Below, piece after piece: positions 2,587-43,624 of a stretch of DNA of 64,000 nucleotides. The first letter of the stretch is position 1, and the number at the start of each line of letters is the position of its first letter. Source of the DNA: Clostridiales bacterium (GTDB taxonomy: Bacteria > Bacillota > Clostridia > Christensenellales > CAG-138); assembly GCA_024698505.1 (NCBI GenBank), contig JAILRE010000009.1:870-64869 (forward strand), given 5' to 3'. The notes under the pieces were generated by a model. The model saw only the letters and a program-made list of their open reading frames with translations, was not told the origin of the DNA and did no database searches. The translations under genes and the position numbers were made by a program.

Positions 2587-3308
2587 ACCGTTACGCGAAT
2601 TACATATTCGACCTTTACGGCACGCTGGTCGACATTAAAACGGACGAGACCCTTCCGGGGCTCTGGGACGCGCTGGCGCTCGTTATGAGCGACTGCGGCG
2701 CCTTTTCGCGCACCGGCGATGAGATGAGGGAGGCCTATCTGAGGCTCTGCGCAAAGGAGCAGGCGAAGGCCGCCGATCCCCTTTACGAAATCGAGCTTCG
2801 CCGCGTGTTCGCCGGGCTCTACGCCGAGAACGGCGTCGAGGCGGATAATAACCTCATCGACGAGACGGCGTACTTCTTCCGCGCCGCTTCCACAATAAAG
2901 CTCAGGCTCTATCCCTGGGTGCTCCCCGTTTTCGAAAGGATAAGAAGGGGCGGCTCGCGGATATTCCTCCTCAGCAACGCGCAGGCCTGCTTCACGCTCC
3001 CGGAGCTTGAAAAGCTCGGCATTTCGGACGCGTTCGACGGCATAGCCATTTCGTCCGACGCGGGCTTCAGGAAGCCCGACCGCCGCATAATGCAGGGCCT
3101 TATCGACAGGTTCGGCATAGATCCCGCGGCGTCCCTCATGACGGGCAACGACAGGACGACCGACGTTGAGATCGCAAACAGGTTCGGCATGGATTCGCTG
3201 TATCTCAGGACGGAGACCTCCTTTGAGATACCCGGCGCGCCGAGGGCTACCTTCGAGCTGACGGACGGGGATCTCACGGGGCTTGAAGGGCTCATGGGCA
3301 TAGAATGA
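2583..3308 (+). CDS. HAD-superfamily hydrolase
   Basis: GTG start overlaps the upstream stop. N-terminus VNRYANYIFDLYGTLVDI contains HAD motif I (DxYGT); C-terminal GNDRTTDV is motif-IV-like. This is the 3' part of ORF 2031..3308. Confidence 0.75.
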   Translation: MNRYANYIFDLYGTLVDIKTDETLPGLWDALALVMSDCGAFSRTGDEMREAYLRLCAKEQAKAADPLYEIELRRVFAGLYAENGVEADNNLIDETAYFFRAASTIKLRLYPWVLPVFERIRRGGSRIFLLSNAQACFTLPELEKLGISDAFDGIAISSDAGFRKPDRRIMQGLIDRFGIDPAASLMTGNDRTTDVEIANRFGMDSLYLRTETSFEIPGAPRATFELTDGDLTGLEGLMGIE

Positions 3309-34398: not shown

Positions 34399-34447
34399 AT
34401 ATTTCCGCGGGAGGAGATTCGAGCGTGAGGCAGACAGCCCCGCAGGC

Positions 34448-34680
34448 TTTTTCTTCTCATTTCTTTTGCTCCCTTTTTTCGTTCGGATCATTCGGAAAGG
34501 ATCCCCCTGCCGAGGGATCCTTTTGAGCATTTCCCCTCATCCACCGCAAGCGGTCCCCCTTCTCCACCAAGGAGAAGGCTGAGCGTAAAGCGGCCGGTAA
34601 AAGTGTCGAGCCGACGCAGTCGGCGAGACTGATGAGGGGCGGAGGGGGGAATGAGAAAGGCAGTAAAGGGGCGGCCTTCC
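34448..34680. repeat. Intergenic hairpin-rich repeat element (full-length copy)
   Basis: 34448-34582 is a near copy of 41839-41977; 34605-34640 of 23568-23600; 34647-34672 of 41427-41453. Contains a 9-bp closing stem CCCCTCATC/GATGAGGGG around three hairpins. Confidence 0.8.
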
Positions 34681-34684
34681 CCCA

Positions 34685-35641
34685 TCAATCGAACGTCTTT
34701 CCGTCGCATCTGTCGCGGAAGATCCAGGTCCTGCCGCCGTCCGTCGTTTCAAACCAGACGTCGCAGGTATCGGGGTCGTACTCATCCCTGCGGTCGGAAG
34801 CAACGTAAACGGGGATCACCCCGTGATCGCCGTTGAATACAGGAACGAGATACTGCGGCGCGTAGAAATAAGGCCTGACCTCTTCCGGAAGATCAAGATC
34901 CGCCATATGGCTCCACGTCTTTCCGCCGTTGAACGTGGCGTAAACGCAGGAATCGAAGATGGTCGTATCGTGACTGCACTCGGTGAAATTGTAGCAGATG
35001 AAGGCTGTTTTCTCATCCTTTACGCATGCACCGGTTATCCCGAGACCGCCGACCTTCTCCTCGGGGCGATCCATTCTCTTCCAATTGCCTTCATCGTCCA
35101 AATACCACAGCAGGAAGTCGTCCACCATATCGGGCCAGTAGGGGATGGCGGCGAAGTTATCGCCGATATAGCCGAAAAGATTTGGGCGCTCATCCCATGT
35201 TTCCTTGGGCGCCGGCGCAATGAGCTCTGCCGGCAGAGTTCGGACGAGACGCATTTTCGTAAGCGTCTCGTCGGTCTCGTAAACGCCGAGCCCATCCTCG
35301 GTTTCTTCAAGCAGATAAATGCACTTGTTGACGTGCACGAGGATATCGGAGGTCTCACCGTTAAGGAGCGCGGCGCAAAGAGCATAGTATTCCTCCTCAA
35401 CGGCGGCAAAGGGCTCGTCGGTAGCGGGGACCGCCGTATCCTCCGGCGTCTCCGTCGGCGCGGGCGGGGTCGTCTCAAGGACCGTGGGGGAGGGCGTATC
35501 GAAAGCTGCCGCAGCCTCGGTCGGGCTTAATGAGGGTTCCTCGCTCCCGTCGCTCGGGCGGTTTCCGTGCGGCGTGCAGGAGACGAGGAGGATCAGCGCA
35601 AGCACAACGGCAGGCAATGCATACAAAGATTTCTTTTTCAT
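34685..35641 (-). CDS. Lipoprotein with C-terminal Asp-box-like (DGGxTW) motifs; paralog of 55956..56993
   Basis: Lipobox LILLVSC, a PT-rich linker, then FNGGKTW and FETTDGGRTWIF. Confidence 0.7.
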   Translation of the reverse strand: MKKKSLYALPAVVLALILLVSCTPHGNRPSDGSEEPSLSPTEAAAAFDTPSPTVLETTPPAPTETPEDTAVPATDEPFAAVEEEYYALCAALLNGETSDILVHVNKCIYLLEETEDGLGVYETDETLTKMRLVRTLPAELIAPAPKETWDERPNLFGYIGDNFAAIPYWPDMVDDFLLWYLDDEGNWKRMDRPEEKVGGLGITGACVKDEKTAFICYNFTECSHDTTIFDSCVYATFNGGKTWSHMADLDLPEEVRPYFYAPQYLVPVFNGDHGVIPVYVASDRRDEYDPDTCDVWFETTDGGRTWIFRDRCDGKTFD

Positions 35642-40876: not shown

Positions 40877-41383
40877 ATGCAAATGAAGAGAAGCTCCAAA
40901 GCGTTTACGACAGCGGTGTTCGCCGTTTATATGATACTGCTCGTCTGGCTCGTGATGTTCAAGCTGGAGACGGATATTTCCCTGCTCTCGCGGTACAGGA
41001 GGGTGCTGCTGATCCCGTTTTGCCGCCCGGGATCTTCGAGCCTCCGCTTCGAGGCGGGGGAGATGCTTTTGAACCTGTTCGCGTTCATGCCGCTCGGGTA
41101 CTGGCTCGCCATGCTGGACTTTCCGAAAAAGCCGTGGGCGAGGACGCTTGCGGCGTTCTGCCTCAGCCTGCTCCTCGAGACGCTGCAGTACTTGTTTTTC
41201 CTCGGCACCTCCGACGTGACGGACCTTATCCTGAACACGCTCGGAGCTGTGCTGGGCGGGCTCGCGTTCAAAGGAGCGAAGCGGCTTATGGGGGAGAGGG
41301 CCGAAAAGGTCTCGAACGCTGCGGGGCTCTGCGTGATGCTGTTTCTGACAGCCGCCTGGGCGTTCCTGAACCTGATGAACTGA
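40877..41383 (+). CDS. VanZ-family membrane protein
   Basis: MQMKRSSKAFTTAVFAVYMILLVWLV, then LNLFAFMPLGYWL and GTSDVTDLILNTLGAVLG. Confidence 0.75.
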   Translation: MQMKRSSKAFTTAVFAVYMILLVWLVMFKLETDISLLSRYRRVLLIPFCRPGSSSLRFEAGEMLLNLFAFMPLGYWLAMLDFPKKPWARTLAAFCLSLLLETLQYLFFLGTSDVTDLILNTLGAVLGGLAFKGAKRLMGERAEKVSNAAGLCVMLFLTAAWAFLNLMN

Positions 41384-41448
41384 AAAGGTCCCTTGCTTTG
41401 CAGGGCGGCTGAGAGCCGACCGGAGCGGGGAATGAGAAATGCGGAAAA

Positions 41449-41707
41449 GGGTGCATTCACTTAAGGAGATGCAGGTTTTCAGCCGAAAAAAACTCAACGA
41501 ATAAAAAAGATCCGGGGATAGCGATATCCTCGGATCTTTCTATCGTTTTCAGGCTGAAAACCGTGAAGCGTCTCAAAAGTGGAGATTTTTGTGCCGGGCA
41601 AGGCGAAAAGCGCAGGAATACCCGTTAGCCGTCTTCCGAGCATGAAAGGCGCAGCACGGCGCAAAAAGATACCTTTTGAGGCTGTTTATCCTTAAGTGAA
41701 TGCGCCC
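41449..41707. repeat. 259-bp palindromic element bounded by 19-bp terminal inverted repeats (MITE-like)
   Basis: GGGTGCATTCACTTAAGGA at 41449-41467 versus the reverse complement of 41689-41707 (18/19 match). Inner 11-bp inverted repeat at 41474-41484 / 41552-41562. Central 15-bp hairpin at 41506-41539. Confidence 0.7.
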
Positions 41708-41977
41708 AAGAGCTGCCCCTTCCTTTATCCATGGGAAGGCTGATCGGCGGCGCGGACTGCCAAAAGGCCTCTCCCCGGTGGAGAGGCTCCCCCGAAGGGG
41801 GTGGCGAGGGGGTATGATATGAGAAAAACCCCGCGGGGTTTTTCTTCGCGTTTCTTTTACTCCCTTTATTTTTTCGTTCGGATCATTCGGGAAGGATCCC
41901 CCTGCCGAGGGATCCTTTTGAGTATTTCCCCTCATCCACCGCAAGCGGTCCCCCTTCTCCACCAAGGAGAAGGCTGA
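41708..41977. repeat. Further modules of the intergenic repeat family (truncated copy)
   Basis: 41839-41977 is a near copy of 34448-34582. Upstream hairpins are CCTTCC..GGAAGG-CTGA, GCCTCTCC-CCGGT-GGAGAGGC, CCCCC-GAA-GGGGG and the palindrome AAAAACCCCGCGGGGTTTTT. Confidence 0.8.
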
Positions 41978-42000
41978 TAACCTCCTGCAGTTAAAAACAA

Positions 42001-42038
42001 AGCATGGCGCGGAGTACGGCTCCGCCGCCATGCTTTTT
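42001..42038. terminator. Strong bidirectional terminator downstream of the HerA-like gene
   Basis: AGCATGGCGCGGAG-TACGG-CTCCGCCGCCATGCT stem flanked by an A-run and TTTTT. Confidence 0.75.
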
Positions 42039-42109
42039 GCAAACGGTTTTTCGGAAAACGAGGGCTTTTCGCCGCGGGAGTTCAAATGCCCGCGGTTTCG
42101 GTCAGGGCC

Positions 42110-43624
42110 TCATTTCCTCTTCAGGATGTTGAGTATGCCGCGGAATATCGTCCTGCCGAGCTCGCGGCCTATCGAGGTGGCGGTGGAGCCCGCTACCTTG
42201 CCGAGAGCCGAATTCTTCTTGCGGGAGTTCTTCTTTTTCTCGGCCTCCTTCTCCTTCTTCTCGCGCTCCTTCTCGGCCTTGGCGGCGGCCTTGGCTTCCT
42301 CCTCCTTCTTCTTTTCCTCGGCCTTCTCCTCCTCTATGCGGAGCTTGTCGGCGGTTATCTGCTCGTAGGCGGATTCGTTGTCCGCCGCGGTATCGTATCT
42401 GCCGTAAAGATCGGAGGCCTCTATCTCGGCCCTGCGCCTCTCGTCGTCGATCGTGCCCATCATGGACTGCGGCGGGAGTATCGTCACCCTTTCGGCGACG
42501 GTGGGGCGGCCCTTCTCGTCAAGGAAGCTGACGACGGCCTCGCCCGTGCCGAGGGAGGTTATCGCCTCCTCGGTATCGAAGGCGGGATTCTCGCGGAAGG
42601 TCTGCGCGGCGGCGCGTATCGCCTTCTGCTCGGCGGGGGTGTAGGCCCTTAAAGCGTGCTGCACGCGGTTGCCGAGCTGAGCGAGTATCGGATCGGGTAT
42701 GTCGGAGGGCTGCTGCGTTATGAAATAGACGCCCACACCCTTGCTTCGTATCAGCTTCACGACCTGCTCGATGTTCTCCTTCAGGGCCTTGGGCGCGCCG
42801 TTGAAGAGCAGATGCGCCTCGTCGAAGAAGAATACGAGCTTGGGCTTTTCAAGATCGCCCTCCTCGGGCAGCTCCTCGAAGAGCTCGGCCAAAAGCCAGA
42901 GCATGAAGGTCGAGTAGAGCAGGGGGGAGCGGAACAGCTTCGCGCAGTGGAAGACGTTTATATAGCCGCGGCCGTCCTCGTCCCGGCGCATCCAGTCGTG
43001 TATGTCGATGGCGGGCTCGCCGAAGAAGATATCGCCGCCCGCGTCCTCAAGCTGCAGGAGCGCGCGCTGCACGGCCCCCGCCGACTGCCGCGAAACGTTG
43101 CCGTAATCGTTCAGAAGCTCGGAGGCGTGATCGGCGGTGTAGGCCACCATGGCGCGAAGATCCTTCAGATCGGTCAGGAGCCAGCCCTTGTCGTCCGCAA
43201 GGCGGAAGACTATCGCGAGCACGCCCGTCTGCGCCTCGGTAAGGCCGAGGAGCCTCGCAAGGAGCGTCGAGCCCATATCGCTGACGGTCGTCCTGACGGG
43301 ATGCCCGCCCTCGGAGAATACGTCCCAGAAGCAGACGGGGAAGCTTCGCATGGGGAATTCCTCGGGATCGATCCCGATGCTTTCGAGCCGCTTTTCGATG
43401 ACGCTCATATCGCCCGCCTTAACGCAGGCGCCGAGATCGCCCTTGACGTCCGCGAGGAACACGGGCACGCCGAGGGAGGAGAAGCTCTCCGCCATGACCT
43501 TCAGCGTTATCGTCTTGCCGGTGCCCGTCGCGCCCGCGATGAGCCCGTGGCGGTTCGCCATTTGGGGGAGGATAAAGGCCTCTTTTTCGCCTTTTCCGAC
43601 GAGTATCCTGCCGTCCTTGAGCAT
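42110..43624 (-). CDS. HerA-like P-loop NTPase, DUF853/YjgR family
   Basis: RBS AAAGGAG then ATG at 43624. Walker A GATGTGKT, Walker B LVFFFDEAHLLF, K/E-rich region and a basic C-terminal tail. Confidence 0.85.
   Translation of the reverse strand: MLKDGRILVGKGEKEAFILPQMANRHGLIAGATGTGKTITLKVMAESFSSLGVPVFLADVKGDLGACVKAGDMSVIEKRLESIGIDPEEFPMRSFPVCFWDVFSEGGHPVRTTVSDMGSTLLARLLGLTEAQTGVLAIVFRLADDKGWLLTDLKDLRAMVAYTADHASELLNDYGNVSRQSAGAVQRALLQLEDAGGDIFFGEPAIDIHDWMRRDEDGRGYINVFHCAKLFRSPLLYSTFMLWLLAELFEELPEEGDLEKPKLVFFFDEAHLLFNGAPKALKENIEQVVKLIRSKGVGVYFITQQPSDIPDPILAQLGNRVQHALRAYTPAEQKAIRAAAQTFRENPAFDTEEAITSLGTGEAVVSFLDEKGRPTVAERVTILPPQSMMGTIDDERRRAEIEASDLYGRYDTAADNESAYEQITADKLRIEEEKAEEKKKEEEAKAAAKAEKEREKKEKEAEKKKNSRKKNSALGKVAGSTATSIGRELGRTIFRGILNILKRK

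Follow-up and report, generated by a model that had tools for sequence, protein, structure and literature searches.

The DNA examined here is a 64,000-nucleotide stretch (the window) from the genome of an uncultured member of the Clostridia, and its subject is a MITE (miniature inverted-repeat transposable element) of 259 bp, located at positions 41449-41707 in the gap between two convergent genes. The source metagenome-assembled genome (MAG; G000) comprised 2.03 Mb in 64 contigs, was 85% complete and had a GC content of 57%; the window was located on its contig C13. On the left of the gap a VanZ-like gene (40877-41383, plus strand; Pfam PF04892, E 2.4e-20; present in the list of open reading frames, ORFs) ended with its 3' end toward a cluster of repeats. 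On the right a HerA-like ATPase gene (42110-43624, minus strand; Pfam PF05872, E 6e-206) ran in the opposite direction, which left ~725 bp between the two. The initial annotation of the window had found no credible ORF in this gap, and our analysis agreed with it: the sole long frame (41573-42085, minus strand, 170 aa) crossed the repeats and had a GC content at third codon positions of 0.60, compared with ~0.7-0.85 in the neighbouring genes.

The gap was not conserved base for base when it was compared across relatives, a comparison that the initial annotation had proposed together with a genome-wide search for the terminal repeats and a fold of the RNA. In congener G003 the vanZ-like and herA-like genes were spaced by ~50 bp, which held one hairpin (a bidirectional terminator), and in congener G013 they were separated by ~190 bp. 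At two further loci, L091 in G001 and L093 in G009, an extra minus-strand gene of ~240 aa was present where G000 has the repeat cluster. The orthologous gap in congeners had no sequence in common with that of G000. Because the congener gaps are ~50 bp or ~190 bp long or hold an extra gene, the G000 gap is a lineage-specific pile-up of repeats.

The MITE at 41449-41707 was delimited as a full copy by copy alignment, and it was assigned to the plus strand according to the more stable fold. Its terminal inverted repeats (TIRs), determined by inverted-repeat search and copy alignment, were located on the plus strand at 41449-41474 (left, GGGTGCATTCACTTAAGGAGATGCAG) and 41682-41707 (right, ...CTGTTTATCCTTAAGTGAATGCGCCC). 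The outermost 19 nt of both ends, 41449-41467 (GGGTGCATTCACTTAAGGA) and 41689-41707 (reverse complement GGGCGCATTCACTTAAGGA), were identical at 18 of 19 positions as the initial annotation had claimed, and they were the sole two matches in the window, where 0.02 were expected by chance. The similarity of the two ends extended to 26 nt at 85% identity and was kept in all copies of the family. When 15 copies were aligned with 30 nt of flank added to each, the edges of homology were sharp (GGG...CCC). The predicted minimum free energy was -120.8 kcal/mol for the plus strand, which folded into a three-way junction, and -108.6 kcal/mol for the minus strand. The basal stem of this fold was formed by the TIR pair itself; its fourth position was a conserved T·G, most copies having GGGTGCAT paired with ATGCGCCC.

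Two modules were distinguished between the TIRs. Module A (41474-41562, plus strand), outlined by inverted repeats and the conservation profile, was an inner palindrome (GGTTTTCAGCC...GGCTGAAAACC) round a terminator-like hairpin. The inner inverted repeat paired 41474-41490 with 41546-41562 (17 nt at 88%) and had an 11-nt perfect core, and the hairpin at 41506-41539 had 15-nt arms that were 93% complementary. The initial annotation had noted the 11-bp repeat and had placed the hairpin at these coordinates. In the terminator scan the hairpin and its tail (41506-41549, plus strand) resembled an intrinsic terminator, with an A-run before the 15-bp stem and a T-rich tail after it. The presence of a GC-rich stem-loop followed by a T-run makes it a predicted terminator. 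The unpaired parts of module A were the most variable stretch of the family in the conservation profile. Half-elements, consisting of the left TIR and module A alone, were also observed in or beside terminators at G000:C40:11325-11440 and C40:44948-45049. Module A with a single end can therefore survive by itself.

The MITE family was multi-copy in G000, which contained 15 full-length copies with 88-96% identity and ~14 more that were cut by contig ends with ~140-nt overlaps, ~27-30 in total. BLAST of the MITE against G000 gave 58 matches, and the genome-wide search gave 51 occurrences of the 19-mer TIR. The many contig ends inside MITE copies indicate that the MITE breaks the assembly. Multiple copies were also present in 11 of the 13 other species of the genus, with 73-85% identity to the focal copy, and the hosts were uncultured Clostridia MAGs from the rumen of goat, sheep, buffalo and cattle. 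The family is confined to this one genus. Mean identity was 92.8% among the G000 copies and 82% to the copies of other species, which points to amplification after the species split. In congener G004, TIR pairs were found 360 bp apart (C80:22364-22723) and 160 bp apart (C55:51142-51301), as longer and shorter variants of the family.

The dispersal of these copies bears on whether the region is mobile at all. Since it is very rich in stable hairpins, the region could be read as a fixed, locus-specific structural or regulatory sequence that does not move, in effect the single long structured RNA that the initial annotation had offered as an alternative. However, the ~27-30 copies were dispersed with unrelated flanks, and the congener gap was ~50-190 bp long or gene-bearing and had no sequence in common with that of G000. 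A fixed sequence is thus extremely improbable, and the alternative was rejected for the region as a whole; the right half of the MITE (module B), however, did have a conserved covarying fold. Neither a TIR unique to this site nor base-for-base conservation of the region, the two signs that the initial annotation had named as speaking against mobile DNA, was observed.

The focal copy was flanked by AA on both sides (41447-41448 and 41708-41709), although the initial annotation had noted no obvious target-site duplication (TSD). The two copies of the TSD were read from the 15-copy flank alignment and from a table of the flanks of 39 distinct copies in G000 and related genomes. The flanking dinucleotides in this table were AA/AA in 32 copies, TT/TT in 4 and unequal in 3, so that a 2-bp direct repeat was present at 36 of 39 copies. 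The element at 41449-41707 is therefore small and non-coding, has TIRs and a TSD, is dispersed and varies in presence and absence between genomes. These are the defining properties of a MITE, apart from a known parent insertion sequence (IS).

To describe the target, a fixed rule was applied alike to the copies and to random genome positions, and it scored those that fell within the apical loop of a hairpin of 5 bp or more. Such a loop contained the insertion in 22 of 39 copies, compared with 348 of 3000 random positions (11.6%). The target stems were unrelated in sequence; both stem halves were intact and the loop was split. When the flanks were joined, a canonical intrinsic terminator appeared in most cases: an A-run preceded a GC-rich stem, whose short loop contained the AA or TT, and a T-run followed. 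The joined flanks of all 15 copies were searched in the genus, and intact, uninterrupted terminators were found in congeners at the sites orthologous to rplT, C40:8413, C20:36796 and C42:50434; these congeners were too diverged for a base-by-base reading of the duplication. The initial annotation had described the gap as a landing pad, and the results make this sharper than stated, as the loop of a terminator hairpin was split by most copies. Exact-protein look-ups of both flanking genes gave no same-species empty site. A metagenome scan gave no empty rplT terminator, a scan for TIRs followed by non-MITE sequence gave no hit, and the viral collection gave no match.

The copies also showed a preferred orientation. 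As read from the sequence, 14 of 15 G000 copies were co-directional with the gene ending just upstream. An ORF-based heuristic applied to all copies scored 10 as co-directional between tandem genes and at most 4 as opposite, 2 of them on spurious frames; this heuristic is noisy, with spurious frames in a genome of 57% GC, and supports a tendency only. A MITE copy thus tends to point the same way as the gene at whose terminator it sits.

Module B (41568-41682, plus strand) forms the core of an order-wide superfamily. It was a long hairpin with conserved internal loops, defined by a 23-sequence alignment, RNAalifold, pair counts and the hit of covariance model R1 at C13:42437-42551. According to the conservation profile, its ~115 nt were nearly invariant within the genus. 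BLAST in other genera matched only positions 131-222 of the MITE, and these matches lay within ~165-bp elements with quite different inverted repeats at their ends. For alignment A1, which comprised the 23 sequences from three genera, RNAalifold predicted a long hairpin of 31 pairs. Paired cells amounted to 95.1%, against 40-55% when the partners were slid by 1-3 columns, and compensatory change on both sides was present at 13 pairs, against 2-6 in the slid controls; the observed values were reached by 0 of 500 shuffles. G·U was present in 86 of 713 cells, including four nearly fixed G·U pairs, and the complementary strand of module B would therefore pair markedly worse than the plus strand. 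The unpaired internal loops were conserved as well (CAAGG-N-AAAAGCGCAG and GAGCAT-N-GACGCAG). Among the 61 genomes of the family, model R1 detected module B in 21, which represented 18 of 50 genera, with up to 27 matches in one genome. At the level of the order it was detected in 22 of 151 genomes, which came from many different families.

Two other readings were tried and rejected. A K-turn or promoter in the loops of module B was discarded, the sequences being inconsistent across copies, and so was a bridge RNA of the IS110 type, the targets being without common sequence. As a separate observation, MITE variants of 281 bp (loci L033, L036, L039, L041, L069, L075 and L081, from the CAMOTD and CAMZFO MAGs) had an extra hairpin of ~20 nt (e.g. 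AAACACTCAAAGAGTTTTTCG) just 5' of P3, the apical hairpin of module B. The fold of module B therefore tolerates an added arm at that point.

The conservation of module B raises the possibility, though a doubtful one, that this module or the whole foldback is primarily a functional structured RNA, for example a stabiliser of the 3' untranslated region, a processing site, or a small or protein-binding RNA. Spread in different TIR pairs would then be secondary, and the core would be a passenger captured repeatedly as beneficial to the host or the element; such a role overlaps with the mobile explanation given below and is compatible with it. The compensatory changes and the conserved unpaired loop sequences speak for such a role, but no match was obtained in Rfam 15 for the region or the sister elements, where chance-level hits only were found, far below the gathering scores. 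The core was conserved between differing TIRs, both in the family (18 of 50 genera) and in the order (22 of 151 genomes); yet every match examined lay inside a TIR-bounded element, and no single-copy syntenic version was seen among them. The four conserved G·U pairs of module B and the T·G of the TIR stem favour one strand, and the tendency of copies to follow the direction of the upstream gene also speaks for an RNA role. However, no promoter-like site was found in the focal region, and within the genus the module A terminator is upstream of module B, so that read-through transcripts may not reach it.

Sister families with the same core and other TIRs were found in G073 (20 copies), G064, G111 and G084. 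Their flanks were 4-bp YTAR direct repeats, such as CTAA/CTAA, TTAG/TTAG, ATAG/ATAG and similar, and their copies were located outside terminator loops. IS5 duplicates a 4-bp target, 5'-YTAR-3' (PMC5009759). This feature was found only in the sister families of other genera; the window MITE family differed from them in its duplication, which was 2 bp (AA/TT) rather than 4 bp, and in its hairpin-loop targets. From these differences, the core seems to have been joined to another set of ends in the window MITE family. A further-reaching proposal, which we consider rather unlikely, is that module B represents a novel type of structured nucleic-acid module that is mobile and occurs order-wide in interchangeable TIR pairs. 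Such a module would act in cis, as a handle for a host-encoded or other mobilising enzyme or as an RNA element at the 3' ends of host transcripts, and would be coupled in this genus to a strand-specific reading of terminator loops.

A mini-form of the MITE was also present in the genus. This 28-bp sequence (GGGYGCATTCACTTAAGGAGATGCRCCC) occupied the loops of terminators at 11 loci, distributed over 5 of 14 congeners (G000:C8:5068-5095, C19:30377-30404 and C32:247-274; loci L126-L136 in G002, G005, G009 and G013), and its internal junction was always the same. It consisted of the first 24 nt and the last 4 nt of the MITE, joined at an ATGC common to both ends, and it read 11+6+11 with the palindromic centre CTTAAG. 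The mini-form could have arisen by recurrent deletion or be the footprint of an excision, or it could represent a minimal mobile unit.

We consider it likely that the gap grew as small non-coding repeats were inserted one after another into what had been a short terminator region, and that 41449-41707 is a non-autonomous MITE which is mobilised in trans and targets hairpin loops. The transposase would be supplied in trans and would prefer the dyad or loop of DNA able to form hairpins, where its cut would be staggered by 2 bp. The most likely candidate would be a DDE enzyme from the IS5/IS1182 lineage, because the sister families have YTAR duplications and hairpin targeting occurs in the related IS1182 family. 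Insertion would be tolerated in two ways: the paired TIRs may reunite the two parts of the host terminator, and module A may serve as a replacement terminator ~60-100 nt inside the element. Since TIR pairing would rejoin the terminator halves and module A would replace the terminator, copies would gather at the 3' ends of genes, in most cases pointing the same way as the gene upstream. Selection on the plus strand, as RNA or as single-stranded DNA, would maintain module B.

Several observations weigh against this explanation. Its main weakness is the ratio of 32 AA to 4 TT in the frame of the element, as a symmetric DDE cut at AA/TT predicts equal numbers; the bias needs selection on orientation or a strand-specific step or mechanism. 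The focal copy is atypical and does not occupy a clean terminator loop: the hairpin whose large loop it entered is weaker and is part of another small repeat. The exact length of the duplication rests on the identity of the flanks and on one diverged paralogue, with no same-species empty site. This paralogous empty site (~34640-34685) reads GGGGAATGAGAAAGGCAGTAAAGGGG and the focal site reads GGGGAATGAGAAATGCGGAAAA + MITE + AAGAGC; the paralogue fits a 2-bp duplication, because the lengths agree only with one AA removed. Lastly, no TIR pair with a transposase was found in G000, at 52 public loci or in five congeners whose completeness was 90% or more, and all spans were 160-360 bp; the MITE-rich genomes, too, were without a DDE_3, DDE_Tnp_1, DDE_Tnp_1_2 or DUF772 transposase with matching ends.

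A parent IS would be expected to have the MITE ends (GGGYGCATTCACTTAAGG.../...CCTTAAGTGAATGCRCCC); neither a solo-TIR check in G000 nor a self-BLAST for multi-copy genes gave one. By family, PF13358 (DDE_3) was absent from five genomes, PF13586 (DDE_Tnp_1_2) gave no hit, and PF05598 (DUF772) was absent from a 3-contig genome with six sister-family copies; PF01609 (DDE_Tnp_1) gave only an IS1182-like gene with unrelated ends and, in G073, a broken gene. Because IS copies are often missing from MAGs, these absences count for little either way. An origin from IS630/Tc1-mariner was rejected, as 0 of 39 copies had TA flanks and PF13358 was not found in the five genomes.

An IS1182-family element was observed on contig C1 of G000 at ~18.0-19.7 kb (locus L204). 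It was AT-richer than the genome and encoded a 502-aa transposase with DUF772 and DDE_Tnp_1_6 (ORF 1378-2886 of the locus, minus strand). Its TIR (CAGACCRCKGACAAA) was unrelated to the MITE, and the same 21-bp hairpin (TCCCCCGGCAGAGCCGGGGGT), which is part of the end of an IS200-like element, was located on both sides (~1357-1377 and 3008-3028). The hairpin on both sides indicates that the element was inserted at a hairpin and duplicated it. An IS1182-family gene flanked by hairpins in G000 therefore means that hairpin-seeking transposases live in this lineage.

The strand bias and the mini-form could instead suggest that the MITE moves as single-stranded DNA, in the manner of REP elements mobilised by a RAYT-like HUH enzyme, or by a serine or DEDD-type recombinase with a 2-nt AA core; the mini-form would then be a minimal site or a footprint. 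The excess of AA over TT flanks (32 to 4), the better fold of one strand and the hairpin-loop targets, which are single-stranded when extruded, are all consistent with such a route. But the TT/TT copies, read in the element frame, are incompatible with a fixed AA core, and the 4-bp YTAR duplications of the sister families are typical of DDE transposition. The recurrence of the same mini-form in the loops of terminators (11 loci, 5 of 14 congeners) fits a minimal site, but it is also explicable by deletion between the ATGC repeats of both ends. Moreover, no more than 6 of the 14 congeners had a Y1_Tnp gene (PF01797), and its presence did not track the MITE. We therefore regard movement by these enzymes as quite improbable and retain mobilisation in trans by a DDE transposase as the preferred explanation. 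The single IS200-type Y1 transposase gene seen in G000 (C41:3653-4009, locus L137) was AT-richer than the genome, and its ends were unrelated to the MITE.

The remainder of the gap was filled by other repeats. To the left of the MITE, 41385-41448 (plus strand) is one half of the small hairpin-repeat module (GGGGAATGAGAAATGCGG...) that the MITE split, as identified by the uninterrupted paralogue at ~34640-34685. To the right, 41710-41812 (plus strand) was assigned by inverted repeats and paralogue comparison to the other half together with short GC-rich hairpin units at 41716-41744, 41765-41785 and 41786-41812; these units had weak relatives in congeners G002 and G009. A perfect palindrome at 41821-41846 (AGAAAAACCCCGCGGGGTTTTTCT), detected by the inverted-repeat search and the terminator scan, resembled a bidirectional terminator hairpin. 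The nested insertions into a terminator region that the initial annotation had proposed were thus supported, with the MITE inside another small repeat and further units filling the gap.

A second hairpin-rich repeat of ~145 bp (41829-41977, plus strand) matched window positions 34438-34582 at 92.6%, and the similarity stopped directly after GGAGAAGGCTGA. The last ~45 nt of this repeat (ACCGCAAGCGGT...GGAGAAGGCTGA) were themselves a multi-copy unit in congeners G010 and G002. The initial annotation had called the repeat a truncated copy of a module at 34448-34582. The match and the exact stop were found as described, but not the truncation, because other copies share the same end point; from the comparison of copies, GGCTGA is probably the natural end of the unit. 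The ~45-nt hairpin unit with this end (ACCGCAAGCGGTCCCCCTTCTCCACCAAGGAGAAGGCTGA) was seen in the window at 41928-41976 and 41716-41744 and was dispersed in several congeners, with 11 matches in G010, several of them within 7 kb on G010:C2, and 13 in G002. At the right edge of the gap, a hairpin with 11-bp perfect arms followed by TTTGTTTTT on the minus strand (41999-42036) was read from the sequence as the likely intrinsic terminator of the HerA-like gene.

These results have consequences beyond the locus. MITE copies break assemblies and inflate "gene-free" regions, and their recognition improves the annotation of rumen and gut Clostridia. Targeting of the terminator loop with the stem left intact provides a natural case of structure-directed, near-neutral insertion that complements the stem-cutting of IS1272. 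The order-wide covarying core without an Rfam match is a candidate functional RNA or DNA motif, and if the mobilising enzyme is found, its preference for hairpin loops could serve as a targeting principle.

The window MITE resembles bacterial MITEs in general, such as Correia/NEMIS in Neisseria, RUP in S. pneumoniae, bcr1 in the Bacillus cereus group and ERIC/IRU (PMC10969869), which are likewise small, non-coding and multi-copy and have TIRs and a short TSD. They too are intergenic, fold into long hairpins, cluster or nest with other repeats and lack a transposase of their own. The TSD of Correia and RUP is TA, whereas that of the window MITE is AA/TT, and its interior is more conserved than its TIRs and is common to an order. 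Loops of terminator hairpins are not among the target preferences described in the review of these elements (PMC10969869). Compared with IS5, the sister families match the YTAR duplication, but the window family has 2 bp of AA/TT, and no IS5-type transposase with matching ends was found. Some IS5 subgroups give duplications of 2-4 bp.

The closest known target choice is that of IS1272/TnSha1, of the IS1182 family in staphylococci, which insert into hairpins, many of them confirmed terminators, in a structure-directed manner with little primary-sequence specificity (PMC4923244, PMC5678879). The window MITE likewise enters hairpins with unrelated stems (22 of 39 copies against 11.6% of random positions), and the IS1182-family element of G000, whose TIR is unrelated to the MITE, is also located at a hairpin. 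IS1272 makes its cut in the stem and removes part of the hairpin, and no duplication results (PMC4923244, PMC5678879); unlike it, the MITE leaves the stem intact, splits the loop and duplicates 2 bp. These targets are unrelated terminators and the MITE is non-autonomous, in which it differs from IS1397 and ISKpn1. Those two elements of the IS3 family insert with a short duplication into the loops of REP or palindromic units, and both, being autonomous ISs, recognise a single family of repeated palindromes. As in the REP/REPIN system with its RAYT, the copies are extragenic palindromes behind genes with a strand-specific structure, and a single-copy helper enzyme is expected in trans; however, REPINs have neither a target duplication nor a long TIR-bounded cargo, whereas the MITE has a 2-bp duplication and does not co-occur with Y1 genes. 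In eukaryotic short interspersed elements of the CORE-SINE type, a central domain without a known role stays conserved, whereas lineages exchange the terminal parts related to mobilisation. CORE-SINEs are eukaryotic retroelements and the MITE is a bacterial DNA element, so the likeness is one of analogy. The window element is thus a familiar kind of element, a MITE, with two unusual traits, the targeting of terminator loops and an order-wide folded core.

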